A DNA stretch of 64,000 nucleotides from an uncultured Gammaproteobacteria bacterium (GCA_964349465.1 CAYGGC010000001.1:33428-97427), one strand, 5' to 3'; shown: positions 4,464-29,397, counted from the stretch's first letter. Notes: a model not told the origin generated them from the sequence alone. Translations and numbers: made by a program.

Positions 4464-4583
4464 TATACGAAAAACGGCGGACACGTGTGTGCCAGCCACC
4501 AATACTGAAAGACTACTCTGGGATACCTTTTTTGACAAGTCTAGCCCGCCGTTCTTGTCGGGTGTGTCGGTCGATGTGATATG

Positions 4584-7870: not shown

Positions 7871-8334
7871 TACTCCTCACTTGAAGAAAATGACTTGGAC
7901 GAGACCTTGACAAACATTCATTTCGATGCTAAGGTGTCGCCTTCCTTCGTGCTCTTTCGTGACGGTCAGCACCTACCTACGGGCGAGAGTTTCCGGTTGA
8001 GGCAACCCCTCCTACCGCTTTAGCCGGGGACGTTATTCAGTCAGGGTTTTCCCTGGCTGGCTAGCACCTGGCCCGTAGATAGGTGACGACGGTGGTCAGT
8101 GCTTTTGTCGTCAATCGTTCTTTTGCGGTGGCCCGGGGCACGCTAAGAGTGCTGATACCCTTTTCTGGCGGTATCTCCCCAACGTGCGGATGTTTGCCAA
8201 AAAATCAGGCACCCAATCAAAGGGGATCCTGGCCACTCATTTTTGCTCGGCTAGTTGCAAGCGGCTCGGATTGTTTTAGAGGACTGGATGCCTCTCTGTC
8301 TGACTCCCGCTCTGTCGACTAGCTGGGCTCTTTT

Positions 8335-8871
8335 TTATTTTTCTGAACGAGAACTAAGGTCGCTAAGTAGCTCAGTTACGGCTTGATCGATAGCTGCCCG
8401 CACGAGTTCTCGATCTGGTGCTGGCAGGGTTTGTAAGACATAATCCTCCGTTGGGATCACATCACTTTTACCAATGCCAATCCGAATGCGCGCAAAGTCT
8501 TTGGTGCTCAAGGCATCGATAATGGACTGGACGCCGTTATGACCAGCGCTCGAGCGACTGTGTTGTCGTTTCACTTCACCGGGCGGAAAGTCGAGCTCGT
8601 CATGAATCACAACAAGGTCACGATGAAGATCCGCACCGTCGAGAGAAATGTTTTTGTAGGTCAAAAAATCTTTGAGCGCATCGCCACTCCGGTTCATGTA
8701 TGTTTGTGGCTTCACAAGCCAGTGGTCGCCGGTTCGCACGGCGAGGACATCACGCTCCTGCGACCAAGAAACGGCGAGAGCTTCAGCGAGCTGATCGAGG
8801 ACAGCGAAGCCAACATTATGGCGTGTGCCAGTATAATCCGGTCCAGGATTTCCTAGTCCAACAATGATCAT
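8335..8871 (-). CDS. pth: Peptidyl-tRNA hydrolase
   Basis: MIIVGLGNPGPDYTGTRHNVGF… canonical Pth N-terminus; 178 aa. Confidence 0.95.
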   Translation of the reverse strand: MIIVGLGNPGPDYTGTRHNVGFAVLDQLAEALAVSWSQERDVLAVRTGDHWLVKPQTYMNRSGDALKDFLTYKNISLDGADLHRDLVVIHDELDFPPGEVKRQHSRSSAGHNGVQSIIDALSTKDFARIRIGIGKSDVIPTEDYVLQTLPAPDRELVRAAIDQAVTELLSDLSSRSEK

Positions 8872-10394
8872 TGGTTCGTATTTTGGCTGGTCTGATTGGT
8901 TGGAACTTGATCCTGACCAAGAATAAGGATCAGCCGTGGCCCAGGTACCGCTTGGTTCTGATTGGCTTGGTTGGCATTGGTTGTTGAATCGAGGGAAGTG
9001 CGAAGCGTGGTGTCACCAGTCAACACCTCCCACTCAGTCAGAGTCATCGATCGACGGGCTTGACCATAGAGGCTCAGGAGCTTGGCCGTGACCGGAGCTC
9101 GTCCTGTGCTCTGATCAATCACAACGGTTTGGGGGACGGAGACATTCCGAACGGTGGTGGGTGAAGCGTCTAAACCAAGGCTGAGCAAGCCCTTCGCGAC
9201 TGCGTCGGCTAAACCGGTCGCGGTCGTGGCGTTAACGACCGTGATCGTGGCTTGTTCAGCGTCAGTCGCGGCGAAGGAAAAAATATTCTTTATAAAGAAG
9301 CGAATGTCGCCATACGTATCGTCGCGGGGGATAAGGATAAAGGCCCCGCCTAGTCCAGTGGCGTTTTTGACTAAACCATTGACGCTCGCGTCAATGACAC
9401 GATTGATAATTTGGGAAGTTTTCACGTCGCCAGCGAGTTTCGCTAAGCGGACGATTTCCCACACCTCCATATTTGTTTGACTGTGTGTCCCGAGGCTTTG
9501 GAGGATATCGCTAATTTTCAAGGGATTCGAGAGTGTCCCGAACGAGAGCAGTTTTTCTTTTAAGGCGTAGATGACTTTTTGCTGTCGGGCGGCGCGGGCG
9601 AAATCCGAACCTTCGCCGTTTGTCCCATGACGTGATCGCGAGAATTTGAGCGCCGTGGCGCCGGTCATCGTCTGCGTTCCAGCTTTGAAGGAAATGGGGT
9701 CATACCCATAGTTATTGTCCGGGTAGAGCGGATCGTAGAAGGTGGTGTCGACGGTAATCGTGACGCCACTGACGCGGTCGATGACTTCCGCGAAGCCAGT
9801 GAAATCAACTCGCGCGTAATACTGGATTGGCTGGTCGATGAGATCGCTGACGACTTTGACGGCCAGCGCCTCGCCGCCACCCGGATAGTCATTATCGCGG
9901 CCGATTGAAAGAACGCTATTAATTTTACGGAAATCGTATCCCGGAATATCGACGACGAGATCGCGGGGGACAGAAATCATCGCCAACTGGTCTGTTGACG
10001 GACGGTAGCTCATCACCATCATCGTATCCGTTAGGTAAGGCCCTTCATGTCCTGGTCCACCGATACCCATCAGGAGGATATTAATCCGATCGTCGGCTTC
10101 GCCTTTGAGTTGTTCATCATTTTGCGTGACGAGATGTGTCAGTTGCTGGAAAAAACCGACGCGGCGGTTTGAGCCATCAAGTGATTTCGTGTTGATGACC
10201 GCGATCGCGCGGTAGAGGATCCAGCCAGTGACCACAAGGGCAATAACCGCGACGACGCTCATCGTTAAAACTGTCCATCGAATCCGATGGTGGCGGACAG
10301 GAAGTCGCTGACCGGGGCGCAGCTGGTTTTCCGAAGACGGAAGCGGGCTCGGCGCTGGAGAGACCGGCTGAGGTGATGGGGTTGGGGTAGGCAT
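8868..10394 (-). CDS. LytR-CpsA-Psr (LCP) family cell-envelope polymer transferase; Pro-rich N-terminal tail, one TM. The ORF track extends to 10568, but that would overrun the divergent promoter, so Met-59 (10394) is the proposed start
   Basis: LCP domain motifs (INILLMGIGGPG…ISVPRDL…); TM helix WTVLTMSVVAVIALVVTGWILY. Confidence 0.85.
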   Translation of the reverse strand: MPTPTPSPQPVSPAPSPLPSSENQLRPGQRLPVRHHRIRWTVLTMSVVAVIALVVTGWILYRAIAVINTKSLDGSNRRVGFFQQLTHLVTQNDEQLKGEADDRINILLMGIGGPGHEGPYLTDTMMVMSYRPSTDQLAMISVPRDLVVDIPGYDFRKINSVLSIGRDNDYPGGGEALAVKVVSDLIDQPIQYYARVDFTGFAEVIDRVSGVTITVDTTFYDPLYPDNNYGYDPISFKAGTQTMTGATALKFSRSRHGTNGEGSDFARAARQQKVIYALKEKLLSFGTLSNPLKISDILQSLGTHSQTNMEVWEIVRLAKLAGDVKTSQIINRVIDASVNGLVKNATGLGGAFILIPRDDTYGDIRFFIKNIFSFAATDAEQATITVVNATTATGLADAVAKGLLSLGLDASPTTVRNVSVPQTVVIDQSTGRAPVTAKLLSLYGQARRSMTLTEWEVLTGDTTLRTSLDSTTNANQANQNQAVPGPRLILILGQDQVPTNQTSQNTNQ

Positions 10395-10561
10395 GGCGGA
10401 AGAAAATCCTGGTGAGTATAGCGAGGAACGAGAGGGTTGGCAACGCACGAGGGTAGCTTCGGAGAAGGAGGGGTAAAAAAGTCCCCCCGGCAGTCTTTTT
10501 TCTTGGTAACTCAAGACATTCTGTGGACTGATCTTAGCCAAAAAAATTAAAAAAAACGTAT

Positions 10562-10590
10562 TTGACATTCACTATCGAAAATCGTACAAT
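10562..10590 (+). promoter_or_regulatory. Consensus sigma70-type promoter TTGACA-17-TACAAT driving the giant surface-protein gene; divergent from LCP gene
   Basis: Perfect -35/-10 hexamers with 17-bp spacer; ATG 10607 lies ~10 nt after predicted TSS (short/leaderless). Confidence 0.5.
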
Positions 10591-10606
10591 ATATTTAGCA
10601 ATTTTC

Positions 10607-13600
10607 ATGGAAAAAAGAAAACTTCAACGATTTTTTTATCGGTTCTACCCCCGGCGACTGCAACGACGGAGTTTTGTTGTGTCCGCCTCGCGACGACCAG
10701 TGTTTTCCGATCTTCCGAAATTTCTCACGATCCGACAAACGGCGAAAATTCTTCATGTTCATCCAAATACGCTTCGAGCCTGGGACCGAAAAGGGAAATT
10801 GCGCGCTGTCCGTTTCGGTTCACGGCATGATCGTCGGTATTTGCGAGATGAAGTCGCGGCGGCTTGGGCGTTAACCTACGGACGTACGCCGATTGCTCGT
10901 CCGAACTTTGCTCTGCCACCACTTCGTCGGTATGCGCCGGCGCTTGGCCTGTTCTTATTGTTGCTCGGGTCTGGTTGGGCAGAGTTCTCGTCGGCCGCCA
11001 CCGAACCGGCGACCGTTGAAGTGTACGCACAACCCCGTGAATGCTCCGGTTGGGTGCAAGCGAGTGCTGCGACGAAGATTGAGCTTTCTCCAAAAAGTGA
11101 TTTCAATAAATTTAGCATCGCCAATTCAGCGCAAATACGAAGCCAAGATTTGGGCTTCACGACGGATGCTGGCGCGGCGACTGCGACGTTCGATCGTGTA
11201 GATCCTGAATTAACATGTGCACATTTCTCACTAGACGAAAAACTCACTGGTTCATTAAGCGGAACCACCGTAAGAATTTTCTTGGGTACAAACGGCCAGC
11301 TTAATTCAACCGATGCGCTGAAAGTCTCTTGGTCCCTTGATGGCAAAGACTGGGCGCTCGTTGCAACCGAGTCGGTTAAGCGAGAAGAGCAGCAACCGAT
11401 TGTCATCGATCTTCCGGCCGTCACCGACAGCCAGCGACTCGCCGATCTTCGTGTTCGCCTACAGCCTGATTTTTCCTTGAATGGAGATTCGTCGGTGTTT
11501 GTCGATGGTGTCCGTGTTGAAGCGCGTCTACATCCCCCGGAGCCGACGCCGAGTGTTCAAAGTGCCCCTGCGCGACAAAAAGAATTAGACCGATTAACGG
11601 CCTTCTCTAAAGCTAGCTACGAGTCGGATGATCAGCCGGAGGTGACCGTTCCGAAACAACAAACCAAACGACGTTTTCTATTTGGAAAAAAAGTTGAAAC
11701 GTGGAAGCTCAAAGACGTGAGCCTGATTGATAGCAAGAGCGAATCGATGTCGGTTGATTATCGATCGGTTGACCAGGTTTCCGGTGATGATACTAACGCT
11801 CGGCTTCGGTTACGTATGAGCAGCCAGCATCCGGGAAAATATATTTTACGCATCACAATGATTTCGCCGACGGGGACCATCGAAGTGGTTGAAAAAACGT
11901 TTTTGTGGGGCGTTTTAGCGGTGAATATTACTCGAGCGAACCCAGCTGTGGGTCAGACGCAGCTTGTTGGTATTGGTGTGCTGGATGATACCGGACGGAC
12001 GATTTGTGACGCATCGGTTCAGGCAACGGTAACCGACCCGAAAGGAAGAAAAACTCAGTTTGAGACAAGAAACGGATCACTCAAGACAAACCCCACCTGT
12101 GTTGATAAGGGTGTCACCAACGAGGCGGACTACCATTTCGCCCTAACGCTTGAACAGGCCGGTGTCTACCGTGTTTCGGTGACAGCAGATACAACAGTCG
12201 GCGAGCGTAAAATTGAAGAAAATTTTATTACCGAGGCGACCCAGCCGTTTACCGTCGAGCGGGTTGATTACCCGACGCGGATCTTTCCGCCAGCGGAATA
12301 TCCGGTGCGCATCGCGATCACACCGAAGAAGGATTATCTCGGCCTTGTCACGGAAGAAATCCCGACCGATTTTACAATCACCAATATTTTTCCGGCCGGG
12401 ACGCTCCGCACCGTTGGCACAACAGTCAAAAAACAATTTATTGAATGGCTGGTCGAGTGGAAAGCCGGGCAGACGTATTACCTGACGTATACGTTCGACG
12501 CACCGGATATTTCGCCGGCCTTGTTCCTAACCGGTCCGTTGACAATCGGCGGATCGTTTATCGCCGCCCCGGATTTTCAGGAATCACGCCAGTGGCAGAT
12601 TGCCTCCGACGCGATTAGCGCAAACGGTAACTTCTACTACGGCGATACGACGAACGCCGGTAAAATCAAAATGACGCCGTTCACAACCGCGTCCACCTAT
12701 GGCACTGAAGTAAACGTCAACCTTGGACCGGCGGTCAACATTATGCACGTCGTCGCGAAGACCGCCCCGACCCGGGAAGAAAAAATGATTGGCTATATTT
12801 CCGGTAACCCGACGACTGACGGTCGGCTCGATATCGTAACCGGCACGACTGGATTCGAAGCGGCCGGCGACTACACCCTTCGTTGGACCGCGACCAGCGT
12901 GACTGATGGCCAAGATTGTGACGCGGCCCCGACGGCCGGGACGTGTACCCAAGCGTTCGACCTGGGCTACGAACAGCTCTCCGGCCGCGGCCTAGTTGTT
13001 TATGCTGGTGACGCTGACGCGAGTGGCGCCCCAGATGCGGACAAAATCTATTACGCGTTGTGGGACGGTTCGGCCTGGTCACCGGACACGACCCCGAACA
13101 CCCCGAGCGCGACGAATGAACTCAGCTTGCCCGGAACCGGCGCGACACCGCGGTGGATTCGCGTCGTCCCGGCCGGCGATAACCTGGCGGATGAGCGGTC
13201 TAACCGAGCGGTCGTACTGGTGGCCGACAGTGACGACGACCTGTACGCGTACTATTGGGACGGTTCCACGTTCGACGCCGGGACCGAGCTCTTTACCACA
13301 CTCGGCAACTGCGCCTCCGCTCGCTGTTTCGACGGTAACTGGCAAGGAAATAACACTTTCATCGTCAACTACACGAACAGTGGAGTCAGCGAAGTGCGCT
13401 ACCAAAAATACTCAGTTGGTTCGGGTTGGGGCGGGGATACACAAGCCTTTACGACAGCCGCGACTCCGTCATTCCTCTTTTCTGCGGCTGATCCGACGAG
13501 CTCTCGGATCATGATTGCCAACTTTACTAGTGGTAATGATACCCGAGGCGCGGTCTGGCGAGCTGACGATGCGACTGACGGTTGGACGGTCTGCGCCTCG

Positions 13601-16600
13601 GGTGGTTGTCCGGATACGGCGGCGGAAGGTATCGGTGGACCGCAGGCCGGGATCGCATTCGAGCGATTCAGCGGCGAAGCTCTCCATGTCTTTAACGACG
13701 CCGCCAACGGTACGGCTCAGGGTAATATATACATGACGTACACACCGACCTCGACCTGGAGCGCCACCTCGACGACTGGTATTACCCCAAGCGACGACCA
13801 TCAATTCACCAAGCTGATTCCTTCACCGAACAGTGATGATATTATGGTTATCGCTGGTGACGTCGACTGCGACGTTGACGCGACAATGTGGGGTGGTTCC
13901 GCGCCGAGTACGGTTGGTTCGAACTTCGAGTTGTTGTTGTCGAGTTCGAATGGTTCATGCGCGAACTCTGTTCCGATTGCAGGCATGATGACGACGGGTG
14001 GTATTGATTTCGCTTGGAATATCTACTCCCCGTGGGGGTTGAACTGGCGGTGGACCGGCGATACGACAACGGCGAACCCGGGGTCGTACTTGGCAAACGA
14101 AAATGTGACCCCGACTGGCGTCGCTGACGCGACGACCGTTCGTTTGCGTTATGGCTTTGTGAACCGTGGGACAACGGCGCAGGCGCTTTCGGCCGAGGGC
14201 CGGAAAAAATTGCAATATACGAGTGACGACCCGGAAACGTTAACCGCGACGTGGGCTGACGTCGACGCTGATGATGGGGCCGGGATCTGGCGATATAACA
14301 ATTGTACGGCCGGAACTGACGATAGCGCGATTCCATCAGCGGTTCTGACCGCTCCGAGCGGCGGTTCAAATATCGTCGGTGATTTTATCGAAGGGTCGGG
14401 GAACATTACCCAGACCCACAGTGCCGGTCCGGCCGTCGCGATTGAAAATGATTATTGTATCGAGTCAAACGGTGCGACCGGAAGTACGACATACTATTTC
14501 CGCGCGTTTGATAACGAACAGCAGACTCCAGTCTGGCGCGAGCAAGACAACGACGGTGCGAACGACTGCGCGACCGCCGCTTGTACCTATCCAAGCTTGT
14601 CGACCGCCGCCCAGACGATTACGGTCAGTGGCACCTGCGACGCCTACGACCAAACGACGAACTGTGCCGACCTCGGTGATATCCGGGTCGCCGTCGGTGG
14701 TACGCTCCAATCTCAACTTGATACCCAGGGCGGCGGCGGACCTGGTGGCACCGACGGGACATTCTCGATCACCAGTGTTCCAAAACCTTCAGCGAACGCG
14801 ATTGTGACTGTCTTCGTTGATGGTGCGCCGGCGACGGCTAGTAATCGTGCTGTTGCGATCACTAAGTACGATGGCTCGGGTAGCATCAGCGGACTACAGT
14901 TGTTCAAAGAGCACCTAACAATCGGGTCGGCTGATACAGCCGCGACGCTAACCAGCGCGGAACTTGGATCATACGATAATTCTGTTTCGAGTAGTGACGC
15001 GGATGTTTTTCACGATTACAACGGTTCAACGACGTTTACCGTTGACTCAACCGGTTTTTCAACCCAGGAAGAACTGTATATCGGTTCCGGCTGGACCTAC
15101 CGCCCGGATTCCGGCGGCGGTGATACATTAACGACAACCAGCATCGAAATTGCGGCTGGAACATTAACCCTCGACAGCAATACGTTCAACGTCGGTGGTA
15201 GTTTCGATAACGACGGCGTTCTAACCGCCTCGACCTCGACCACGAACTTTACCGCCGCTTCCGGCACAAACACGATTGACGCCGATGGGACGGCCGCCGA
15301 GGCATTTTACAACGTTGTCTTTAATGATTCCGCTGGGTCCGCGACGTATCAACTCACGACCGTATTTGACGCGGATAATAACGTCACAATTACCGGTGGC
15401 AACTTTGACGCGAACTCGAACGCCGTGACGGTTGGCGGGAGTTGGGATAATGACGATACGTTTACGTCGGGCACGCAGACAACGACGTTTAACGCCCCCT
15501 CGGGGACCAAAACGATTGACGCTGACGGTACCGGCGCGGATTCATTTTCAAGTATCGTTTTCAATGACGCTGCCGGATCAGCAGTTTTCCAATTAACGAC
15601 CGCGATGGACGTGAATGTCGACTTGACGATCACTGGAGGAAACTTGCAGGCTCAGGGAAATCAAATTAACATTGGTGGCGTATTCGATAATGACGACACC
15701 TATACCCATGGCAACAACCTGATTGTTTTTGACGCTACGTCTGGTACGAAAAGTATGGATACTGATGGGACCGGAACCGAGGCACTCTACGATGTAACGT
15801 TTAATGACGGCGGCGGTTCAGCAACATTTGAGTTTTCCCAAGCTCTGGATATTGATCATAACGTGACTATTACGGGCGGCACCTTCTCCCGTACAGGCTC
15901 GTTTACAGTTGGGGGTAGTTGGGATAATGACGATTATTTCTTTGGGGATGGGGTTAATAATATTACCTTTGACGCGACATCCGGCACGGTGGCCATTGAC
16001 GCTCGTGGGAATTATGTTGAGTTTAGTCAGGCGGATTTTAGTATGCGGGTTGTGTTGAATGATGGCGGCGGTTCTGCGGTCTTTCAAATGACCACAGACG
16101 CGATTATTTCTAATGGTCTAGCTATTACCGGTGGCGAACTACAAGCCCAAGGACATTATATTGATCTCTGGGATGGAATTTTTGACAACGATGATACGTT
16201 TACTCACGGAAATGGCACCATCTATCTTGAAGCTAGCTCCGGAACGAACATCCACGACTTCGACGGAACCGGAACTGATGCGTTGTATAATCTTCAAATT
16301 GACGATGGCGGAGGAACGGCGACACACCAACTCTCGACCCTCCTCGACGTCGATAATAACTTAACGATTGTCGGCGGAACGCTCAACGCGAACAGTCAGG
16401 CGATCACTGTCGGTGGCAACTGGGATAACGACGATACGTTTACGTCCGGCACGGCGACCGTGACGTTCGATGCATCTGATACTGATAACACGATCGACGC
16501 TGACGGGACCGGGACGGATACGTTCTCCTCGGTGACCTTCGCAGGTGGTGATGGGAGCGGAACGTGGACTCTTACTACCGCGATGGATGTCACGGTGGCG

Positions 16601-19600
16601 ATGAATGTTGATACGAGCGATATTCTCTCGATCGATTCCGGGATGACACTCTCGCTTAATCGAACTACGACGGCCCAATCCCTGACCCTCAACGGGACAA
16701 TTCAGGGTGCCGGTCGGTTGACCTACCAACTCCCGACCAGCGTCGCAACCTTCCCGACGACCGGGACGATTAGTTCGATTTTGCGGTTTGATGCGACGAC
16801 GGACGTCCAGACCGTTCCAGAGCGAACGTATGGGGGTAATGTTGAATTGTATGAAGCGACTGGCGGGTGTGCATCCCGGACGTTTACTTTAGCTACAACC
16901 GCCGGGCAGACTCTCAACTTCAGCGGCGACCTGTCCTTGATCGAGGGTAACTGCGGCGGCGTTCCAGTGGCCGGCAATACAAATAATCCAATTGTGAACA
17001 TTACGGGTAACTTGACCCAAAACGCGAGTACGAATAGTAGCAGCATCACCGGCGGTACTCAAACCTGGACAGTTTCTGGATCAATTGATCTCCAAGATGG
17101 TGCCGCATCTTCGAGCATCACTAATCTGACCTTGAATGGTACAACAAAAACAATTGCGGTGGTCGGGTCACTTGACGTGACGGGCACCTTGACGATTGAC
17201 GGATCGTATACTGTAACTGCCAGTGCGACTAGTAATCTTTATGTTAGTGGAACCCTGATTGTTAACACCGGTAAAACTTTAGCCATCAATAGTGGCCAGT
17301 CGTTCCTCTGCGGCGGAACAGTGACACTCACCGGTACGGCACAAATATCCGGAGCCGGCACACTCACAGTCGCCTCTTCCAGCCTTGGTACTGGCGGGAC
17401 TCTTTCATCCATTGTCCGATTCGATGTATCAGGGGGTGATGTCACGATGCCAAATCGGACCTATGGTGGAGCGGTGGAGGTTTTCATGGACGATTCTGCC
17501 ACCGCCGCTCATAAGGTCATTATGGCCGGCGGAACACAAACACTACAGTCAAGTCTGTATGTCATTGATAATAGTAACACCTACAATCTCACCCTTGACG
17601 CCTCGAACGGCGGCGCGAACAACCCGACGGTTACAGTGACTGGTGATGTTGATTTTACCGGAACCGGGACGGGTTCCGAAGCGCTGATTACCGGCACGGG
17701 TACCTGGACCGTTGGTGGAAATATCGACTTTACGGGCGGGACGTTTACAGCCACGAGCGGCAACACGATGGAGATGACCGGTGCAAGTAAGACAATCACG
17801 ACGGCCGGGAGTGCACTTCATCACCTCACCGTCTCCGCGGGAAGTGTCACGGCCTCCGGAGCGACAACATTAAACGGCAATATGTTGATCTCTGGCGGGT
17901 CGTTCGCTGGTCCGGCCGCCGCGTTTAACGTCGCCGGGAACTGGACGAATTCGGGTGGTACCTATGTCGAGGGGACCGGAACAGTCACATTGAATGGCGC
18001 AACGTCAACGACGCTGAATTCTGGATGTAGTAACACGGACTCCTGCGCGAATAATAATTTTTACAACCTCGAAATTAATAAGACTGACGCGGCTGATGGA
18101 AATGACAACGTCACACTCGATACGAATGGTATCAATGTCGCGAATACGCTAACGATCACCGACGGCGAACTTGTGCAGGGCGCTCTCAATGTCCGGGCGG
18201 AAGGGGCGACGGCGGTTTCGATCGTGTCGACGGGTAAATGGAGCAATATTTCCACCGGTGACATTAAGCTCGGCGGAACGGCAACGAATAACGGGACCTG
18301 GTTGCTCGACGTTGGCGGGAATAGCGACGGTTGTGGTGGTGGTGATACCGATGATATAACCCTGACCACGACCGATGGAGCGACGCAACGATCGTTGGCT
18401 GGCTCTGGAACGTTTACTTGGTATGACGTCTCGGTCTCCTACATGAATGCGACGGTGGCGATTACGGTGAACGGCGGAACGAATGTGAGTAACAATGCCG
18501 GGAGCTTTACGTTTAATGCATGCGGTATCACCATTACCGGTACCATTTATTCTAATTCTGGCGGTGAGGCATCCGCCGTTTATAACTGCAGCTCGGATAA
18601 CCTTACTATCCATACTTCAATTTCCGGTGGCACATCGAGCAATGGAACGTGTACAGCCGTCGGCGGGACGTTCTCGATTGTTACGAACGGCCCTCCGTCA
18701 TCGGCTGGTGACCCGATCGTGTTATGGATTGATTCGGTTGAAACACCGAAGGCGACGACGGTGACCCTGGCGGCCGATACGAGTTCGAATATTTCTGGTC
18801 TCAATCTTATTCAGGATCGATTGATTCTGACGCACGAAAACGGCGGGCCGATGACGAACGCGAAATTGTCGACGGGGGATAATGGTAATGCTGGGATTCG
18901 CTATGCGGTCAGTGGCAGCAATTTGACCGTGGAAAGCGGAATGGAGCTGCATGTCGCGAGTACCAAGGCGTACACCCCGGGCGGGATGGTTACGACGACG
19001 GCTTCGGCGAGTCCATCAAGTGCGGCTGGCGATGTTCACGTCGTTGGGACAATGACGATGGGTACGTATGCGCTCTCCGTTGGCGGTGACCTAACGAACG
19101 GCGGGACGCTGTCCTTAAGCAGCGGTCAAACGACGACGATGACTGCCACCGGGTCTGGATTTACCATCACAGCCGGCGGCGCTTCATTCCAAGGCCTGAC
19201 CTTCAATGGCGCGAGCGGTGGGTGGACGAACAGTGGCGCGTTGACCGTCTCGGAAATTTGGACCGGGACGGCCGGTGGCTTCACGCAGGCCAACTCGACG
19301 ACAATAACCGTCAACGGAACCGCCTTTAGTTTGGCGAACGGCTTTACCTGGACGAAAGCAACGAGCGGCGCGAATTTGATCCTGGAGAATGCGACGAATC
19401 TCGATTTTACTGATAGCAATACAACCAAACAAGACCTCGGTGCCGTTCAGATCGGCGCCAGTCCCGGCGTGACAACGCTAAAGTCGGATATGAGCGCGAC
19501 GACCGTGACAATCCCAACGAGCGATACACTCAATACCAAGGGCTGGGACATTACGGCCAGCGGCGCGTTCGACTGTCAGGGGACCTGCACCTTAAACCTG

Positions 19601-22600
19601 ACCGATACGGCACCGAATAATGAAACTGACGGTACGATTATCGATGTCGGCGGCGACTTCACAATGTCCTCGAGCGCCACGTTTACGTCGTACTCAAATT
19701 CAACCGTCTATCTTAATTCGACGTCCGGGACTGATTCGAACCGAACATTTACAACCGGCGGAAAAGCCTACAATAATGTTGAATTGAAAAACGCTGGCGC
19801 GACGAATGACGATATTACGATTTCCGGTACGCCGTTTGATATTAACGGCACGCTCACGTTGACTGACGGTCAGGTTCGGCTCGATACGAACGATCCGAAT
19901 GTCACCCTGAACGGTAATCTTTCCATTAACGCCAATGCGACAGTCACGAAAGCCGATAACGGAACTGCGACCTGGACCTTCGACGGCGCGACCTCGCCGA
20001 CGACGTGGACCGACGGGACGGGGAGCGGCGGGCAGGATATTGGTTTAGCGATAATCAGCGGGACGACGAAGACGGTTAACCTCGCTTCGAGCGCGAAAGC
20101 GACGAAATTGACGATCGCCGCTAGTCAGGTATTTGGACTTGGGTCATCGGGGTATACTTTTACACTGACAGGGAGTGGGTTCACGCCAAACCATCCGTTA
20201 CAAAACAGTGGTACGTTGAATGAGGGGACAAACTCAACCGTGAAATTTACCGGGACATCTGATTCAGACATTGACCCCGAAGCGTTTCATCATTTAGAAA
20301 TTTCGCCTAGCGGCGCTGGGAGCCCAACCTTTACCTTCGATGTTGCGGAAACCGCAAATCCAACGACGGTCGCCGGAAATATGACTATTGGCGATTCAAC
20401 CAACGCTGTGTCTGTCCAACTTGGTACCTTTTCAGAACTAACCGTCGATGGAAATATCACGATTAGTACCAACGGAACCCTGCTTGGAAGTACTGATGTT
20501 GGGCTGAATCTTGGCGGCTCTTATACAAATAATGGCACTTTTACCGATGCTGGAAATGGAATTAATTTTACAGCCACAACTACCGGAAAGACGATCGCTG
20601 GTAATTTAACAGGTTCAAATAAGTTTTTTGCGATATTTTCCGGAAGCGGTGGAGAATGGACGAATACCAGCGCAGCTGAATTTACTGATCTCGCCATGCT
20701 TGATGGAACATTAGCAGGATCGAATAATATTACCGTTAATGGCGGGACCACAGGTACTGCAGGAATAATAAATCGCTCAGGTGGCACATTTACTCTTAAT
20801 CCTGCAAGCACATCCAGCTTCGGCCCTTCAACCGCCTCAACGTCTTGGACCTTTAACAACCTAACGTTTACCACAACGGCTGGATCGCAGATTACAACTA
20901 CTGTTACAACCTGCTCGACCTGTACATTTACGGTTAACGGGGCAATGAGTGTTGACGCAAAAGTAACTCTGACCATCGCTTCAAGTTCATGGACGGTTGT
21001 TGGGTCGTTAACAACAACAACAACTGGAGCGATTGCGTATACTGGGACACCAACCGTAACGGTGCAAGGCACGGCGCTCGGGGGCGGCACGGGGAATATC
21101 TACTTTTACAATCTCACAAAATCTGGCGCTGGCACGACGACCTGGAGCGGTACCGGGGTGAATGCCGTTCGGAATACCCTGACGCTGTCAGCTGGGACGC
21201 TGGTTGCGCCGAGTAACACACTCTATGTCAACACGTTTACCGAAAGTGGCGGTGCCTTTACACATAACTCGGGCACCGTGATGTTCAATACTGAGGCGAA
21301 CCAGACCCTGACCGCCTCCTCGACGTTTAATAACGTGACGTTCAACGATGGCTTAGTTGGTTGGTGGAATCTTGATGAAACTGCCGGTACGTCCGCCGCG
21401 GATAGTTCTGGGTATGGTCACACCGGAACCCACACAAACACGCCGACGATTAGCACCGATGTACCGACCGTAAACTTTGCCAATTCCCGAAGCTTGGATT
21501 TTAATGGCACAACACAATATGTCGATCTTGGGACGGCGCCGTTTATTAACACCGAATTCGCCGATAAAATTACGTTATCAGCGTGGGCAAAACCAGCAAA
21601 TTTAACAAACTCTGGGACGATTATTGGAAAATCCTTTGACACGAATCATAGTTCTCCTTTTTACCACTGGAACCTCTTTCAAACAGGCAGCCAGATTTGT
21701 TTTCGAGTTGGGAGTACAAATATTTGTAGCGCAACAAGTACGTTAACGACAAGTTGGCAATTGATCACTGGTGTCTACGATGGATCGAATATGTATCTCT
21801 ATCGCAATGGCACGCAGGTGGCGACAACCGCGAAAACAGGGAATGTCGGAAATGGGCTGCAAAGCGCACGAATCGCCGGTCGTGATACGCCGGGTGCCGG
21901 TTTATCGGAATACTTTGCTGGGAAAATTGATGATGTGCGTATTTATCGTCGTGCTTTATCCTCAGGCGAAGTGACGACGTTAAGCAACGGCGACGAATGG
22001 GGATTAACTGGCGCGACCTGGACTCTCGGCGCTGATCTAACGCTCGCCGGGACGCTCGGAATAAAAACCGGTACACTTGATACACATGTCACCAACAATC
22101 GGTCGATCACGGTCGGCAGTAGTTGGTTGAATGACGGGGGCGTCTTTACCGCTCGGGCCGGGACAGTGACGATGAATGCGGGCTCGTCGGGCAAAACAAT
22201 TACCGCCGGTCAGCAAAGTTTCTATCTCCTCAATCTCAATAACGCTAGTGGTGGCTGGACAATGAGTGAGGTCTATACGACCCCGACGATAACCGTGAGT
22301 AATAATATGGTTATTACGGCCGGAACGCTGACCTCGTTAGCGGGCACGCTGTCGGTCGGCGGAGATTTTAATAATGCCGGAACGTTCACGCATAACTCCG
22401 GAACCGTGACGATGACTGGGAGCTCGAAAAATATTACGGGTGGATCGGCGACGACCTTTAATAATCTCACGATTTCTGGCACAACCGGGGTTGACGCGGC
22501 GGGGAGTGATGCGACTGTTGCTAGCCAATTAACCGTCGACAATACCAAGACGCTGACGATCAACAGCGGTCGAACAGTGACACTCTCCGGTACGAGCGGA

Positions 22601-25600
22601 ACAACACTGTCCCTCGTCGGAACGATTACCGGTGCGGGGCGATTGACCTATAAAAATAACGCCACCGCCTTCCCCGCGACTGGCACCATCTCTTCCATTC
22701 TCCGCATGGATGCGACGGCCGGTGACCAATCGATTGGCGGTACCAACTCCGCAACGCGAACATTCGGCGGGTTAGTTGAAATATATTCGAACTCTGCCGG
22801 CACGGCAAAAACAGTAACGCTGGAAAACGGGACTGCTCGAACATTTGCCTTCTCCGGTGCGCTCAATATTATTGCTGACAATACACAAGATCTGACCTTA
22901 ACGGCGGATACCGCTACTGATCCTACTGTCACGGTTACTGGCGATATTGATTTTACTGGAACCGGTGGGGGATCCGAAATTTTGGTGGCTGGTTCTGGAA
23001 CATGGACGGTATCCGGAAATGTTGATTTCACAGCTGGTACCTATACTTCTACCAGCGGAAATAAACTGGTCATGAATGGGACATCAAAAACGTTAACTTC
23101 CGCGTCGCAGGCACTGTATGACTTTGAAGTGTCGGCTGGTACGGTAGCTATTTCTGATGCCACAACTATTTCTCGCGATATGATTCTCAGTGGCGGGACA
23201 CTCACGGGCCCAAGCGGACTGACGGTGAGTGTCGGGCGTGACTGGACGAAGACGAGTGGTTCCTATACAGCAAATACTGGAACTGTTGCCTTAACAACCT
23301 CGACATCGGCAACAATTAGCGGCAGTAACACCTTCTACAATTTGTCTGTTACTGGTATCGGCGCAGCAAAAACTGTGTTAACGGTGGCGGCGACGACGCA
23401 AACCGTTACTGGCACGTGGACGGTGACGGGAGCTTCAGGGCAATTGGTAACTATTAATGCGGCTACAGCAGCACAGTGGAACGTCAACCCAACCGCTGCC
23501 AGTCTTGATTATGTTGATATTTCCTACACAAATAACCAAGGATCGACAATTTGTGCAACTCATTCACAGTCTACCAGTGGAAATAATACAGCGATCACGG
23601 TGACTGCTGGGGCGGGTTGTGGAATTACCATCTCTGGAGTCATTCGTCAAAGCTCCAATGAAACTTCGGCCTATGATTGTTCAGCCAATACGTTGACCAT
23701 CGGAGCTGTTGTGAACGGAGGAACAAGTGCGACCGCTGATTGTACACTGAATACCGGTGTCTACTCGATTAATGCCGCCAACGCGCCATCTGCGGCCGGC
23801 GATCCAATCGTGGTCTATATTAATAATGGAGAAACGCCGATAGGTACAACCGTTTCTCTGTCAGTTGATACATCTTCAAATATTACCAACCTAGATATTA
23901 TTGACGGCCGTTTAGTCACAACGTATGAAAATGCCGGACCGATGACCAACGCAAAAATGGCCACTGGTGATAACGGGAATGCTGGTATTAGGTATTCCGT
24001 GGCCACAGGAAATCTTACCGTCGAGTCTGGAATTGAATTACATGTGAAGAGTGGAAAGACGTTTACACCGGGCGGCACAGTAACGACAACCGCTACTGGT
24101 ACAACAGCTGGGCCTGCAGGTGACCTTCATATTGCTGGAACCTTAACTATGGGCACAAATGCCTTAACCGTTGGTGGTGATTACAATAATGCTGGTACGT
24201 TCAATAAAACGAATACGCAAACGACGACCTTAGCGGCAACTGGCACCGGCTTCACGATTACACCTGGAACAGGCGATATGAATAATTTGACTGTCAGTGG
24301 CGACGCCGGTGGAAATGGAACATATACATTGTCTGGCGCAAATTTGACGGTCGATGGAATTTTGAATGTTAACACTGGTGACACGTTAGCAATTGATACC
24401 AGTCGAACGCTGACAAATTCTGGCTCAACAGACGCTAGCATTAGTGGCACGATTTCTGGTGCTGGAACATTACGATTTGTGAATGGATCTGGCGGTCCAG
24501 GTACGGGCGGTACCATTTCGGTATTAACTCTATTTGATGCTTCGAGCGGTGATATTGCGTCTACAACGGTTGATGCACGCACATATAGTGCAACAGTGGA
24601 ATTGTATGCGAGCTCGTCGAGTGATCGTACAATTACACTCCCATCGTCAACAATAACGTTGTCTGGGTCTTCCTCACATCTCCACATGAAAGCTGATGGC
24701 GCCGGCGACCTCACTGTCGACGGTGCCGCAAATAATCCAACCGTAACGGTTGGTGGAGATATTGCCCTTAACGGTACTGGTGGCGGCGTTGAAGCGTGGG
24801 TGGCCGGAGATAATACGTGGACTTCGTCTGGCAACGTTGATACGGCCCAAGGCTTTTATGCTCCGCATATGGCGGTTCTCAATCCAACCTGGGATAATTA
24901 TGGCTACGAACAGGATGATTATGCTGATGATGGCTTCGGTGGTTGTGATTTCTTAGGCACAAGCTCAAATGCGGGCACAAGTTCTTCGACCTCGCTTACT
25001 CAGGGGTATACAACTGGAGCCTCAACGTCATGTTCGCCATCGGGCACTGATTTCCGCTACCGATCATATTTAAAGTTTAACCTCTCTGGTATTTCAAACA
25101 CAAACACGGTAACTCGTGCAGACCTTCAGATTCATGCTTCAGCTGCCGGTGGAGCCTTTACGGTGTATCGCTCAAATAATGATGCGCCGGATGGTGTGGC
25201 AGCGGGTAGTTTGTATGCAGTGGGCTTAAGTACTGGCTTAAATAGCGTGTATAGTTATGCCACTGGAGTCAACATGATCCCAATGGCACTTGATGGCATG
25301 GCAAATATCCAAAGTTCACTTGGAAATGCCGCCTATGCGGTTGTGCTTGATGGTAGTTCAAGCCTCTCGACTTTGACTTCAACAGATAGTGCCACCAATA
25401 AACCTAAACTTCGAGTCGGATATGTCACCACAGCAACGACTCCGACCTTAGTCATGAATGGAACTGGAACGCTCTCTGGTGGAACGCAGTCTGGTTTTTA
25501 TAACTTGACGATGTCAGGGACAAACACCTTTAACGCCTCTCATGAGGCAAATATTTACAATACTCTGACCTTGTCTGGCTCGATTACGACCAACTCCGCT

Positions 25601-27264: not shown

Positions 27265-28347
27265 ATGATACACCTTATGAACAAGTCCCAACGACGCGCA
27301 ATTTCGATAATTGCGATGTTTGCAGTTCTGTTTGGTGCAAATTTCGGCTTTGTAGGCATCGCGAACGCCGCAACGGTGACGAGCTTTAAAGACGTCCAAA
27401 CGACGCTCGTTGATTCGGCTAATTCAAACCACACCATTTCATGGGTTTCTCCGAGTGGGGTAGCAAACGCGTCGACAATTGTCCTCACTTTTGCGACAGG
27501 CTTCAGTTTAACTGGGGTGATTGAAAACGATATCGACATTGCCGGTTCAACGGAGGGAGAACTAACGACCGCAGCTGATTGTACCGGCGCTGAAAATGCT
27601 GGCGTCGTTCCATCAGGACAAACAATCACGATTACACTGTGTACTGGTGATGGTGGAGACTTTACAAACTCGGAGACCATTACGGTCGAAATCGGGACGA
27701 ACGCAACCGCGTCGGGGACTGGCGCGAACCAAATTAATAACCAAACGGAAGCGCAAAACAACTCTGATCCAAAAATTACCTTGACCTCGGGTGCCAGCGA
27801 TACTGGAAGCTTGTCGGTCGAAGTGATTGCCGATGATAGCGTGAACGTAACGGCGACGGTTGATCCTTCGATTACCTTTTCTATTTCTGACACAACGATT
27901 GGTTTTGGAACGTTGACCACTGGTGCGGCTCGATACGCCAACGGCGCAGCGAGTGGCTCAGCCTCGGTTACCCCCGCTCATACGTTAACAGCTGGTACGA
28001 ATGCGGCGTCTGGGGTGGCGGTTACGTACAATGGTGCGTTGTTAACGAGTGCCAGCAATAACATTGATGCGGCCTCGATCACGGGCGATGCGGATGGTAC
28101 ACCAGGGACCGAACAGTTTGCAATTAGTTTTGATGATAACGGTTCGGCCTTCACAATGGTCAGCGCCTACGATGAAGCTTCGAATAACTCGACTTTCGTC
28201 GCCAGCACAACGACAACCATCTTCTCCACGACCGCGCCGGTTGCTTCCACGGCCGTTGATGCACACTATCTCAGCAACATTGCCGCAAACACTCCGGCTG
28301 GTAGCTATTCAACAGATATTACCTATATTGCGACCGGTACGTTCTAA
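27265..28347 (+). CDS. Secreted 360-aa protein; signal peptide; C-terminal ~150 aa homologous to the C-terminus of the giant protein (…DTTIGFG…ARYA…AGSYSTDITYIATGTF), possibly WxL-like
   Basis: N-terminal signal (AMFAVLFGANFGFVGIANA); clear alignment of C-terminal domains of the two proteins. Confidence 0.8.
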   Translation: MIHLMNKSQRRAISIIAMFAVLFGANFGFVGIANAATVTSFKDVQTTLVDSANSNHTISWVSPSGVANASTIVLTFATGFSLTGVIENDIDIAGSTEGELTTAADCTGAENAGVVPSGQTITITLCTGDGGDFTNSETITVEIGTNATASGTGANQINNQTEAQNNSDPKITLTSGASDTGSLSVEVIADDSVNVTATVDPSITFSISDTTIGFGTLTTGAARYANGAASGSASVTPAHTLTAGTNAASGVAVTYNGALLTSASNNIDAASITGDADGTPGTEQFAISFDDNGSAFTMVSAYDEASNNSTFVASTTTTIFSTTAPVASTAVDAHYLSNIAANTPAGSYSTDITYIATGTF

Positions 28348-29391: not shown

Positions 29392-29397
29392 ATATCG

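Follow-up and report, generated by a model that had tools for sequence, protein, structure and literature searches.

The window, meaning the whole 64,000-nucleotide stretch of DNA that was analyzed, contains a 16.5-kb gene for a giant surface protein of a Patescibacteria bacterium, 5,505 amino acids long and with no internal stop codon (Table 1). The parts of the protein follow one another in a single frame: a basic tail, a winged helix-turn-helix (HTH) domain of the HTH_17 type, a hydrophobic segment, and an acidic ectodomain. Upstream is a divergent gene of the LytR-CpsA-Psr (LCP) type, whose likely start is near 10394, judging from homology and from a promoter at 10443-10415. Downstream are genes for two smaller exported proteins and, at the end of the conserved gene cluster, for signal peptidase I. 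The order mfd-pth-lytR<>giant...GT2-lepB-hisS is conserved: lytR-pth-mfd was found 5' of the giant gene at 16 loci, and lepB has the same position in two related loci, L084 and L085.

Table 1. Features of the giant gene and its surroundings (coordinates along the window)
Feature	Coordinates	Strand	Evidence or remark
Divergent LytR-CpsA-Psr (LCP) gene	8868..10394	-	listed ORF reaches 10568
Conserved cis-element, candidate operator for the HTH	10503..10543	+	alignment of relatives' loci
A-rich tract, element to -35	10540..10561	+	sequence read directly
Sigma-70-type promoter TTGACA-17-TACAAT	10562..10590	+	11/12 matches, 17 nt before ATG
Giant surface-protein ORF	10607-27124	+	start codon ATG, 10607-10609
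Start codon and basic N-terminal tail, residues 1-38 (MEKRKLQRFF...)	10607..10720	+	motif conserved from Met
Winged HTH, BldC/Xis/MerR-N type, residues 31-95	10697..10891	+	Pfam, AF2, structure matches
Arg-rich cytoplasmic linker, residues 96-108	10892..10930	+	length varies, net positive in all members
Hydrophobic segment, residues 109-125, signal-peptide h-region or signal anchor	10931..10981	+	Kyte-Doolittle, AF2
Predicted signal peptidase I site S129-A130-A131 / T132	10991..10999	+	alternative GWA125/E126
First ectodomain, residues ~132-345	11000..11641	+	invariant P143, C146, G148, W149; Cys pair C146/C204
Giant acidic Thr/Gly/Ser-rich middle region	11642..26641	+	composition; length varies among homologues
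Laminin_G_3 domain in middle region	21503-21973	+	Pfam E = 3e-24
C-terminal beta-sandwich domain, ~160 aa, ending ...YSTDLTYILTATF, and stop	26642..27124	+	conserved in complete members
360-aa secreted protein with the giant's C-terminal domain	27265..28347	+	signal peptide …GIANA/ATV
334-aa protein, signal peptide, weak DUF916/WxLIP_PGBD-like domain, C-terminal TM anchor	28387..29391	+	
Signal peptidase I (lepB), end of conserved cluster	35354..36055	+	Pfam Peptidase_S26, E = 4.5e-40

Proteins of this kind are found well beyond the window. Word-indexed searches with residues 1 to 334 returned no matches, and with the family alignment they returned small HTH proteins only. Giant homologues were first revealed by an exhaustive HMMER search with residues 1 to 200, which identified more than 20 proteins of 2,100 to 6,700 amino acids aligned from residue 1. 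The architecture of HTH, hydrophobic segment, and giant ectodomain recurs in more than 20 protein clusters. Among the best 80 GTDB-species loci, 25 have the HTH, the hydrophobic segment, and the open reading frame (ORF) in one frame, with the ORFs exceeding 2,000 amino acids and extending beyond the 6-kb flank. Carriers of the architecture amount to about 25 GTDB species of Kerfeldbacteria and other Patescibacteria. The HTH is also found outside giant proteins, including free paralogues of 58 to 74 amino acids with the identical VHPNTLRxWD...DRRY motif, which are widespread in Patescibacteria but absent from the genes encoded within the 64-kb window, as well as tandem-HTH repeats and a natural protein of 119 to 126 amino acids at locus L046 that consists of the HTH and transmembrane (TM) segment only. 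Locus L028 was considered as a "split" version and rejected; the gene after its small HTH gene is MltG-like and unrelated, and the long tblastn match proved to be noise. A literature search found no prior description of an HTH-led giant protein.

The HTH-led giant fusion is genuine and evolutionarily conserved, and we regard its reality as nearly certain. A fusion of this kind could arise artificially if two separate genes, a small HTH gene and the giant one, were joined by a sequencing or assembly error, or could be misread if translation started downstream of the HTH, but no point in favor of either was found. Positions 10401 to 11400 are 100% identical in three independent assemblies (ENA ERZ27247837, Logan ERR3094302, and ERR3094292), the ENA gene call likewise gives a protein of 5,505 amino acids with HTH_17, and the frame is uninterrupted in 25 species. 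The motif MxKRKxQxF is kept from the first methionine in homologues at 35 to 55% identity, the HTH residues are strongly conserved, and the promoter lies directly 5' of the ATG. The in-frame TTG at 10562 given in the ORF list falls within the -35 hexamer of this promoter, and the only in-frame alternative starts between the HTH and the predicted cleavage site are TTG codons within the hydrophobic core (h-region). Because the architecture and the N-terminal MxKRKxQ motif are common to about 25 GTDB species, a frameshift or wrong start is excluded, and an artefact is barely credible. The missing Shine-Dalgarno sequence at the giant gene is uninformative because the genome does not use Shine-Dalgarno sites. 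The original prediction of an HTH of the excisionase/MerR type at the N terminus of the giant protein, in frame and with no hidden stop or downstream start, thus stands.

The C-terminal domain of the giant protein was modeled by AF2 with a pLDDT of 84 to 95; across 19 members it matches no Pfam family, including the WxL domain (PF13731), and it has no significant fold match in the PDB. The same domain makes up part of the secreted 360-residue neighbor (phmmer E = 3e-25), which has 87 orthologue clusters of about 330 amino acids in Patescibacteria and whose gene also directly follows that of the giant protein in L084 and L085. Assignment of the region as a WxL/Csc-type locus was rejected, as the C-terminal domain contains no WxL domain and the WxLIP_PGBD match of the 334-residue neighbor (21.9 bits) is below the cutoff of 27.3. 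At the other end of the exported region, the conserved Cys pair of the first ectodomain is on the outer side, and an HMM of this ectodomain matched only HTH-bearing ORFs in all of the loci examined.

The HTH matches Pfam HTH_17 (PF12728) over residues 39 to 85 with 36.1 bits against a cutoff of 27, and MerR_1 and MerR also match above their own cutoffs. Among the Pfam DNA-binding types, only HTH_17/MerR-type families were found at the N terminus and none of the others, including OmpR/PhoB (Trans_reg_C). The AF2 model of the domain (pLDDT 93 to 97) has a beta-alpha-alpha-beta-beta-alpha topology, and the nearest structures are the excisionase Pukovnik Xis (gp37; 4j2n, rmsd of 1.2 Å, 42% identity) and BldC of Streptomyces (6amk/6ama). 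Foldseek comparisons with BldC and Xis gave TM-scores to target of 0.8 to 0.87, rmsd values of 1.1 to 1.5 Å, and identities of 36 to 42%, and these two proteins are also the top sequence matches among solved structures. In the model, helix 3 comprises residues 80 to 91 only and is followed by a linker and the hydrophobic helix, with no coiled-coil dimerization helix and no effector domain. Classical MerR proteins share the beta-alpha-alpha-beta-beta-alpha N-terminal domain, and many MerR N-terminal domains appeared in the fold search; they differ in having the long dimerization helix, an effector domain, and a spacer palindrome. As modeled, the domain is therefore a small monomeric MerR-like domain of the BldC/Xis type and not a classical MerR.

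The DNA-contact residues of BldC are retained in the HTH. BldC contacts DNA through Trp31, Arg47, and Arg48 (PMC5859096). These residues align with W59, R76, and R77, which are among the family invariants (H52, N54, T55, R57, W59, D60, G63, R69, R73, D75, R76, and R77). The lack of a dimerization helix is likewise shared with BldC and Xis. Head-to-tail binding to direct repeats, as in BldC, is hinted at indirectly by the tandem-HTH relatives, which would fit such an arrangement, and by (G/C)TAA(G/C) boxes 22 bp apart in the conserved cis-element beside the promoter. In contrast to BldC and Xis, which are soluble proteins of about 55 to 70 amino acids, the domain is at the N terminus of a 5,505-residue exported, membrane-tethered protein. 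It also falls below the cutoffs of NCBIfam BldC (NF033787, 30.9 bits against 77) and the excisionase model TIGR01764 (25.5 bits against 28.8), and it lacks a recombinase or integrase partner or any mobile-element context, its neighbors being housekeeping and envelope genes in conserved synteny.

The HTH of the giant protein is very probably a cytoplasmic, membrane-tethered DNA-binding domain. Other purposes are conceivable; the cytoplasmic HTH of RodZ binds MreB, giant autotransporters have extended signal peptides of the ESPR type that influence targeting and the kinetics of translocation, and N-terminal signal-peptide extensions are frequent on very large secreted proteins of other phyla. 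Together with the observation that the HTH of the giant proteins always accompanies this single cargo family, such cases would be consistent with a protein-interaction or export-control module that does not bind DNA. This is quite improbable given that the DNA-contact residues of BldC are invariant, that the surface is strongly basic, and that close free-standing and tandem-repeat HTH proteins carry the same motif, as would be expected of DNA binders. The parts of RodZ come in the same order (HTH, single TM segment, and external domain), but its HTH is of the XRE type and binds MreB rather than DNA, and it includes neither a giant protein nor a peptidase site.

The sole strongly hydrophobic stretch of the giant protein is at residues ~109 to 125 (YAPALGLFLLLLGSGWA, the top Kyte-Doolittle segment) and is modeled by AF2 as a helix at residues 106 to 123. 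In all 22 members tested, net charge ranges from +10 to +26 for the N-terminal region and from -40 to -366 for the ectodomain, satisfying the positive-inside rule and supporting the original placement of the HTH in the cytoplasm, ahead of a single hydrophobic segment and a giant region that is exported. The segment had been interpreted as a single TM fusion. It is indeed the only one, but its role as a permanent anchor is called into question by the length of the h-region, which is that of a signal peptide (uncharged core of 14 to 17 residues in the window protein), and by an AxA site 15 residues before the invariant Cys (C146). Across 46 members, the position 15 residues before this Cys is Ala in 32, position -17 is Ala or Val in 37, and position -14 is Asp, Glu, or Gly in 25, whereas the columns flanking this [A/V]-x-A site and the [D/E/G] that follows it are unconserved. 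Residues 127 to 142 are disordered in the AF2 model.

As read from the sequence, the layout of RRY, then APALGLFLLLLGSGW, then AEFSSAA with T after the predicted cut has the basic n-region, the h-region of 7 to 15 residues, and the small residues at -3 and -1 that are characteristic of Sec type I signal peptides. Its position is atypical, since the h-region begins at residue ~109, after a folded domain, and not within the extreme N-terminal ~30 to 40 residues. To our knowledge, there is no characterized precedent for a folded domain of 100 residues ahead of a bacterial signal peptide. Because a site of the signal peptidase I type is found 15 residues before the invariant Cys, the hydrophobic segment resembles a signal peptide more than a stable membrane anchor, and the HTH looks like part of a 131-residue leader. 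This suggests that the HTH module may be cut off as a leader instead of anchoring the ectodomain permanently; the chances that cleavage occurs at the AxA motif appear evenly balanced. Counting against cleavage, members of subfamily 2 have a hydrophobic stretch of 29 to 34 residues, which exceeds the h-region of a typical signal peptide.

If the segment is instead a permanent signal anchor, the ectodomain would stay covalently joined to the HTH in the manner of ToxR, TcpP, and CadC, and host contact, mechanical load, or oligomerization of the ectodomain would alter DNA binding by the HTH or trigger regulated intramembrane proteolysis that sets it free. This main alternative to a cleaved leader is essentially the reading of the original prediction. 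These regulators likewise have an N-terminal cytoplasmic DNA-binding domain, one membrane pass, and an extracytoplasmic C-terminal part, and some regulators of this type are under proteolytic control. Their DNA-binding domain is an OmpR/PhoB-type winged helix, joined to a small periplasmic sensor and not cut by signal peptidase, whereas the giant protein has an HTH_17/MerR-type fold, an ectodomain of more than 5,300 residues, and AxA after the hydrophobic segment. Topology and the evidence for DNA binding fit the uncleaved form as well as the cleaved one, the uncharged segments of subfamily 2 would suffice for a stable TM helix, and the first ectodomain is strictly tied to the HTH, as would be expected of two communicating parts. 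A one-component regulator and regulated proteolysis are both plausible. Permanent anchoring is nonetheless rather unlikely, as the AxA motif is at a fixed position just outside the membrane, the h-region of the window protein is short, and the C-terminal domain is common to freely secreted neighbors, which points to attachment at the C terminus. Since the HTH is of the monomeric BldC/Xis type without a dimerization helix, a ToxR-style dimerization switch is also not obvious.

The promoter of the giant gene, originally identified as a TTGACA-17-TACAAT consensus, is real and is kept in relatives, as the same TTGACA...TAnAAT is found at an equal distance from the ATG in loci L004 to L009, L012, L015, and L016. 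Beside it is a conserved cis-element that the original prediction had missed and that is the best clue to the target of the HTH. In the window it consists of TTGGTAACT (box 1, 10503-10511), 16 variable bp, CTGA (box 2, 10528-10531, the equivalent of CTAA in relatives), TC, TTAGCC (box 3, 10534-10539), and AAAA. The consensus is a gapless ~40 bp, TRGTAAST-N16-CTAA-NN-TTAGCC, and 24 loci from different species align without gaps over 64 columns, of which T12, T15, A16, T19, A44, and G45 are invariant. The full element occurs once in the 64-kb window. It was found upstream of 21 to 23 of the 25 HTH-giant genes and near 1 of 55 free-standing HTH genes (Fisher p = 2.6e-14 for 21/25 versus 1/55). 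In type-1 loci the element is upstream of the promoter at a constant 20 to 22 bp from the -35 hexamer, with an intervening A-rich tract that may be UP-element-like; in type-2 loci it is downstream of the promoter, in the 5' untranslated region (UTR). The spacing of element to promoter is constant within both locus types, and because the element is 5' of the promoter in one and 3' in the other, one regulatory sign cannot fit both.

Several other explanations of the element were considered. A structured RNA was rejected; RNAalifold gave 0 pairs, there was no Rfam match, covariation in a hand-drawn hairpin (columns 33 to 37 with 44 to 48) was not above that of shuffles, and complementarity within the element is confined to some type-2 loci. 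None of the alternative promoter types fits (ECF-like, sigma-54, MerR type with a 20-bp spacer, or extended -10 TGGTAAGT), as there is no conserved -35 at the proper distance, the would-be -10 has no conserved final T, and the invariant positions are outside the hexamers; this possibility is rejected, if not fully. Nor is there an element palindrome in a 19- to 20-bp promoter spacer: the spacer is 17 bp, and the element is outside it with a center that is neither conserved nor palindromic. An invertible promoter switch was rejected because the window contains a single copy of the element. The right-hand 10-mer, TTAGCCAAAA, was considered as the mark of a regulon. It has three exact copies in the window (about 0.12 expected for a random 10-mer by our own estimate), one in the 5' region of each of three units: the giant gene, the gene for the small C-domain protein, and the operon of tRNA-Val and lepB. 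This part of the element may serve a more general role because of its presence at the two further 5' regions; TTAGCCAAAA was not conserved at the matching places in two related genomes. A metagenome scan with a strict element pattern gave 16 matches, all of them chance-like, with no HTH gene downstream and with mismatches in the conserved columns that had not been part of the search.

The gapless conservation of the element, its single copy in the window, its association with giant genes, and its constant spacing to the promoter support the promoter of the giant gene itself as the target of the HTH, as does the lack of support for an RNA structure. We place the probability that the element is this target just short of even. 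Counting against such a target, the element is on different sides of the promoter in the two locus types, covariation between HTH residues and element bases was not found, the right-hand 10-mer recurs elsewhere in the window, and the free paralogues with the same recognition helix could be the true binders.

Binding beside its own gene could also have a structural, nonregulatory purpose, with the HTH pinning the chromosome, at the gene's upstream element, to the membrane much as RacA anchors DNA at the pole, or holding gene, mRNA, and translocon together while the protein is translated and exported co-transcriptionally (transertion). RacA of Bacillus subtilis, complexes of which with DNA are among the fold matches (5i44), uses a MerR-like winged HTH to link DNA to the cell envelope; the element adjoins its own gene with one copy per locus, and the HTH is, by its place in the sequence, the first part to emerge from the ribosome. 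RacA differs in being soluble and docking via DivIVA, with neither a giant surface protein nor a peptidase site. A tether of this type is improbable, as the element keeps a fixed distance from the -35 or -10 hexamers, which suggests interaction with RNA polymerase, and there is no evidence of multiple sites or spreading, but it is compatible with autoregulation and hard to tell apart from it. The original prediction had also raised a decoy role; as a decoy, the tethered HTH would titrate the sites or partners of a free small HTH_17 regulator. Free paralogues with an identical recognition helix are available in Patescibacteria for such competition. The window encodes none, the element is not near the genes of the free paralogues themselves, and no specific evidence for a decoy was found, making this role highly improbable.

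In the cleavable-leader reading, the hydrophobic segment would be part of a Sec signal peptide with an extended N terminus. Signal peptidase I would cut after A131 (in relatives, at the corresponding AxA) and release the giant ectodomain with a mature N terminus of TEPATVEVYAQPR, and the released protein would be kept on the surface via its C-terminal domain and partner proteins. The remnant would be a membrane-tethered HTH of ~131 residues, oriented with its N terminus inside and produced 1:1 with the exported giant. Either this tethered HTH or the nascent, still uncleaved chain may bind the (G/C)TAA(G/C) boxes beside its own promoter, coupling synthesis and export of the giant to transcription of the gene through autoregulation. 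Support comes from the signal-peptide-length h-region, from the AxA at fixed positions (-17/-15/-14 from C146) in a stretch predicted to be disordered, from the ordinary signal peptide (ANA, with A after the cut) of the neighbor with the same C-terminal domain, and from the natural HTH-TM-only protein at L046. That the leader is cleaved off and stays as a membrane-tethered regulator of its own promoter is the explanation we favor, with a probability somewhat below even. A more elaborate version is distinctly speculative and on balance unlikely: the HTH would be a "signal peptide" transcription factor (TF), with each export event entailing one signal peptidase I cut and leaving one tethered BldC-like HTH, whose feedback on its own promoter would act as an export counter. 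In this version, the tethered HTH might be freed further by an intramembrane protease.

Conceptual parallels exist in other secretion systems. In autotransporters and TPS proteins, the ESPR is an N-terminal extension ahead of the h-region of giant cargo, and in the enterococcal pheromones cut by Eep a leader has a second life after cleavage. The ESPR comprises about 25 unstructured residues and the pheromones are peptides of 7 to 8 residues, whereas the extension in the giant proteins is a folded DNA-binding domain of ~65 residues plus tails. We know of no precedent for a folded DNA-binding domain as a signal-peptide extension, and a literature search found none.

What is new here is the BldC/Xis-type identity of the HTH, the site of the signal peptidase I type, and the promoter-adjacent cis-element. 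Patescibacteria are ultra-small, mostly attached to host cells, and have very few recognizable regulators; for attachment to the host, their giant surface proteins are prime candidates. An HTH joined to an export signal and a dedicated cis-element would provide a concrete regulatory circuit in a phylum with almost none. If the leader is cleaved, it would be the first case known to us of a folded TF domain embedded in a bacterial signal sequence and would widen the view of what signal peptides do after cleavage; if the export counter is true, it would represent secretion-coupled feedback on a 16.5-kb gene, without a described counterpart. Both parts of the module are compact, at 131 residues and 40 bp, which makes them accessible in heterologous hosts despite the lack of a culture. 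Its conserved design suggests an undescribed link between the export of giant proteins and gene control.

The giant gene is open without a stop from an ATG at 10607 to 27124 and encodes 5,505 amino acids (aa), of which residues 39-85 match Pfam HTH_17 with 36.1 bits against a gathering score of 27; the MerR_1 and MerR models likewise exceed their cutoffs. Hydropathy analysis of the whole protein found a sole strongly hydrophobic stretch, at residues ~109-125 (YAPALGLFLLLLGSGWA). The original prediction that a helix-turn-helix (HTH), a hydrophobic segment, and a giant ectodomain share one frame thus holds, as does that of a promoter directly upstream: a sigma-70-type TTGACA-17-TACAAT at 10562-10590 matches 11 of 12 consensus positions. 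The listed open reading frame (ORF) extends to a TTG at 10562; this codon falls within the -35 hexamer, so that the predicted transcript has the ATG as its first start codon. A Shine-Dalgarno-like sequence was seen at 1 of the 33 gene starts inspected in the window (a 92-aa ORF at 37973), and its lack at the giant gene is therefore uninformative. Several promoters in the window lie just 15 to 20 nt 5' of the start codon, a spacing that would imply very short leaders or leaderless mRNAs. The extreme N terminus, MxKRKxQxF, is conserved from the first Met among homologues, which fixes the start codon and argues against a true start downstream of the HTH.

The fusion is not an artefact, an explanation with next to no chance of being right. 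Three independently assembled contigs (ENA ERZ27247837 and Logan ERR3094302 and ERR3094292), located via the upstream LytR protein, are identical to the window over 10401-11400, with no frameshift or stop at the fusion, and gene calling in ENA gave the identical 5,505-aa product, HTH_17 included. The architecture is also shared by other species. When residues 1-200 were searched exhaustively with HMMER against 1.84 billion representatives, 1,149 matches were obtained, more than 20 of which were proteins of 2,100 to 6,700 aa that aligned from residue 1 through the HTH and the hydrophobic segment to the start of the ectodomain. In a scan of one genome per GTDB species, the motif VH[PVA]NTLRxWD was encoded in 279 stretches; 25 of the best 80 loci encoded the HTH and the hydrophobic segment in frame with a long ORF (in most cases one that passes 2,000 aa and leaves the 6-kb flank), and ~50 of the remainder had free-standing HTH genes of 58 to 74 aa. 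The closest loci carry the label Candidatus Kerfeldbacteria, and the rest are various Patescibacteria. Five GTDB loci (TPA_asm; L005, L006, L011, L012, and L016) are titled "uncultured Gammaproteobacteria bacterium," and all five carry the HTH-giant gene; the lytR, pth, and mfd products of L005, L012, and L016 are 45 to 71% identical to those of the window, in a Patescibacteria-type locus. These labels are almost certainly wrong, and small-HTH matches labelled Pacearchaeota, Bathyarchaeia, and Neomarinimicrobiota may likewise be binning errors.

An AlphaFold2 model of the N-terminal module, built on a 19-sequence alignment, contained a winged helix (beta-alpha-alpha-beta-beta-alpha) at residues 31-95 with a pLDDT of 93 to 97, followed by the hydrophobic segment as a helix (106-123) and a disordered stretch (127-142). 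By sequence profile and fold, the top solved structures were mycobacteriophage Pukovnik Xis (4j2n; rmsd, 1.2 Å; 42% identity) and Streptomyces BldC on DNA (6amk and 6ama; rmsd, 1.1 to 1.5 Å; 36% identity), with RacA and the N domains of classical MerR proteins ranked next. BldC contacts DNA through residues of the recognition helix, Trp31, and His46, Arg47, and Arg48 of the wing (PMC5859096). In the profile alignment, Trp31 and the wing positions correspond to W59, D75, R76, and R77; W59, R76, and R77 never vary in the family, nor do H52, N54, T55, R57, R69, and R73. With its contact positions invariant, the HTH looks fully competent to bind DNA; a role for it apart from DNA, in export control or protein binding, seems distinctly improbable, and a purely structural tether between DNA and membrane, RacA-like or serving transertion, is unlikely. 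The "excisionase/MerR-type" label needs narrowing: the domain is not a classical MerR, since helix 3 of the model stops at residue 91, with neither a dimerisation helix nor an effector domain after it. It would act like BldC or Xis, yet it scores below the NCBIfam cutoffs for BldC and for excisionases and lacks their context, lying among housekeeping and envelope genes rather than in a mobile element. Close relatives of the HTH also occur as tandem arrays in single polypeptides (P0004, P0005, P0009, P0019, and many proteins of 110 to 190 aa): the 623-aa P0004 has 8 matched HTH stretches, many relatives have two copies, and in P0126 two copies precede a transmembrane (TM) segment and a 1,642-aa protein. 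Such arrays would suit a protein that binds repeated DNA sites head to tail, as BldC does.

Comparison of the regions upstream of related giant genes identified a ~40-bp element that aligns without gaps in 24 loci (10503-10543 in the window), with the consensus T-R-G-T-A-A-S-T-n-A, variable bases, and C-T-A-A-n-n-T-T-A-G-C-C-A-A-A-A and with T12, T15, A16, T19, A44, and G45 invariant. It can be read as three (G/C)TAA(G/C) boxes, two of them direct and 22 bp apart and the third inverted, 2 bp past the second. The full element is present once in the 64-kb window. It lies upstream of 21 of the 25 HTH-giant genes by a strict pattern (23 by eye), against 1 of 55 free-standing HTH genes (Fisher P = 2.6e-14 for 21/25 versus 1/55). 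It matched no known RNA, RNAalifold found no structure in it, and a candidate hairpin was rejected for want of covariation; a metagenome scan returned chance-level matches only. Its placement is fixed, in either of two ways. At type 1 loci (the window, L004 to L009, L012, L015, and L016), the element is located in the divergent lytR-giant intergenic region and ends 20 to 22 bp 5' of the -35 hexamer of a conserved TTGACA/TAnAAT promoter. At type 2 loci, it lies between the -10 hexamer of a consensus promoter and the start codon, beginning ~17 nt (or ~33 nt) after the hexamer and stopping ~18 nt short of the start codon. The simplest reading is a protein-binding DNA site that is variably placed relative to the promoter, and the HTH is the prime candidate for its binder because the element strictly co-occurs with HTH-bearing genes. 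The element could instead be bound by free-standing paralogues, whose recognition helix is the same; that the HTH is a decoy for such a paralogue appears very improbable.

The 10-mer TTAGCCAAAA, the right-hand end of the element, has three exact copies in the window, each in a 5' region, against ~0.12 expected by our own estimate for a random 10-mer. The third is accompanied by TGGTATACT at nearly the spacing of the element's TTGGTAACT. The 10-mer is not conserved at the corresponding places in the related loci L084 and L085. Between the lytR promoter and the element, at 10470-10502, a GC-containing hairpin stands between an A-run and a T-run (AAAAAAGTCCCCCCGGCAGTCTTTTTT), in the manner of a bidirectional terminator, yet no gene ends there.

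Features of the giant-gene region in the window
Feature	Position	Strand	Remark
TTAGCCAAAA, copy 1	10534-10543	+	upstream of giant gene
TTAGCCAAAA, copy 2	27246-27255	+	19 nt 5' of ATG of 360-aa C-domain gene
TTAGCCAAAA, copy 3	35175-35184	+	20 nt past -10 of promoter for tRNA-Val, lepB, hisS
Conserved cluster	250-10568; 27265-37473	-; +	synteny
C-terminal domain of giant protein	26642-27121	+	~160-aa beta-sandwich

Gene order places the giant gene in a cluster that is conserved and vertically inherited. Divergent mfd, pth, and lytR genes lie upstream of it in 16 related loci, some with a GT2 gene between lytR and the giant gene, and across Patescibacteria lineages (L084, L085, and L004 to L021) the synteny extends over topA, dprA, mfd, pth, and lytR, all divergent from the giant gene. 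Downstream, in the window, L084, and L085, come one to three small C-domain proteins, followed in turn by a DUF916-like protein anchored at its C terminus, dockerin and cohesin proteins, GT2, (tRNA), lepB, and hisS; signal peptidase I (lepB) always stands at the close of the cluster. Among the loci compared, a hidden Markov model of the first ectodomain matches HTH-bearing ORFs only, so that the HTH, the signal segment, and the first ectodomain travel together. Both as listed and as annotated in ENA (566 aa), the ORF of lytR begins at 10568 (minus strand) and overlaps the -35 of the giant promoter. Its first ~58 residues resemble translated noncoding DNA; because relatives are homologous only from a later point on and a TTGCCA-17-TATACT promoter is present at 10443-10415 (minus strand), the true start is probably an ATG near 10394. 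A second large protein in the window (38662-44325; 1,887 aa) has an N-terminal T4SS_pilin domain (PF18895) and Big_5 repeats and no HTH.

The HTH is predicted to be cytoplasmic and the remainder exported, because in 22 of 22 members examined the net charge is +10 to +26 before the hydrophobic segment and -40 to -366 after it and because a Cys pair just outside the membrane is conserved in subfamily 1 (C146 and C204 in the window protein). The proposed single TM segment stands as regards number; its nature probably does not, since the segment looks like a signal peptide. Its uncharged core spans just 17 residues, preceded by RR and followed by AEFSSAA|TEP. When 46 nonredundant members were aligned on C-x-G-W, a motif invariant in the first ectodomain, position -15 was Ala in 32, -17 was Ala or Val in 37, and -14 was Asp, Glu, or Gly in 25; the neighboring columns and the hydrophobic segment itself were unconserved. 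This AxA pattern, which reads as the -3/-1 rule of signal peptidase I, keeps a constant distance to the point where the folded ectodomain begins and falls within the segment modelled as disordered, and from it we infer cleavage. The hydrophobic stretch of subfamily 2 is 29 to 34 residues, which is long by signal-peptide standards. The main rival, possible if doubtful, is a ToxR-like transducer that stays uncleaved and whose HTH is controlled by events at the ectodomain.

The product of the next gene (27265-28347, plus strand; 360 aa) has an ordinary signal peptide (…GIANA|ATV) and a C-terminal domain homologous to that of the giant protein (E = 3e-25). The domain is kept in every complete family member, ends in both proteins with G-x-Y-S-T-x-x-T-Y-x-x-T-x-T-F, and defines a patescibacterial family of secreted "hypothetical proteins" of ~330 aa (P0167 to P0253). 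It matched no Pfam family and no PDB fold significantly; its sole, weak and nonsignificant resemblance was to chaperone-usher pilins. The sharing might indicate a surface fiber of small subunits with a giant component. As the module is shared with proteins that need release from the membrane, a permanent N-terminal anchor would be unnecessary.

A DNA-binding-competent, BldC/Xis-type winged HTH on the cytoplasmic side is fused through a short hydrophobic segment and an AxA site to a giant exported protein, and a dedicated conserved cis-element lies beside the promoter. The model that we tentatively prefer, at somewhat less than even chances, is a cleaved leader. The hydrophobic segment would serve as an N-terminally extended signal peptide cut by signal peptidase I at AxA (A131|T132 in the window protein), and the giant protein would be kept on the surface by partners and by its own C-terminal domain. 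An HTH-TM remnant of ~131 residues, left 1:1 with each exported molecule, would bind the element at its own promoter and tune transcription. A natural protein of 119 to 126 aa in a Saccharibacteria metagenome-assembled genome (L046, 6049-6429) consists of this HTH and a C-terminal TM segment alone (tail anchored), and its gene is divergent beside that for a 1,155-aa surface protein, from which we infer that a tethered HTH can be a functional unit.

In overall layout, the giant protein is like ToxR, CadC, or RodZ, but its HTH fold differs, it has a peptidase site as well, and its ectodomain is larger by two orders of magnitude. A literature search of incomplete coverage, which took in a giant-gene survey (10.1101/2023.11.21.568195) and a recent patescibacterial genome paper (PMC13059738), found no account of a giant protein led by an HTH. 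The arrangement is a variation on a known class, the membrane-tethered transcription regulators; feedback by leader cleavage, if real, would make it a new kind of device.
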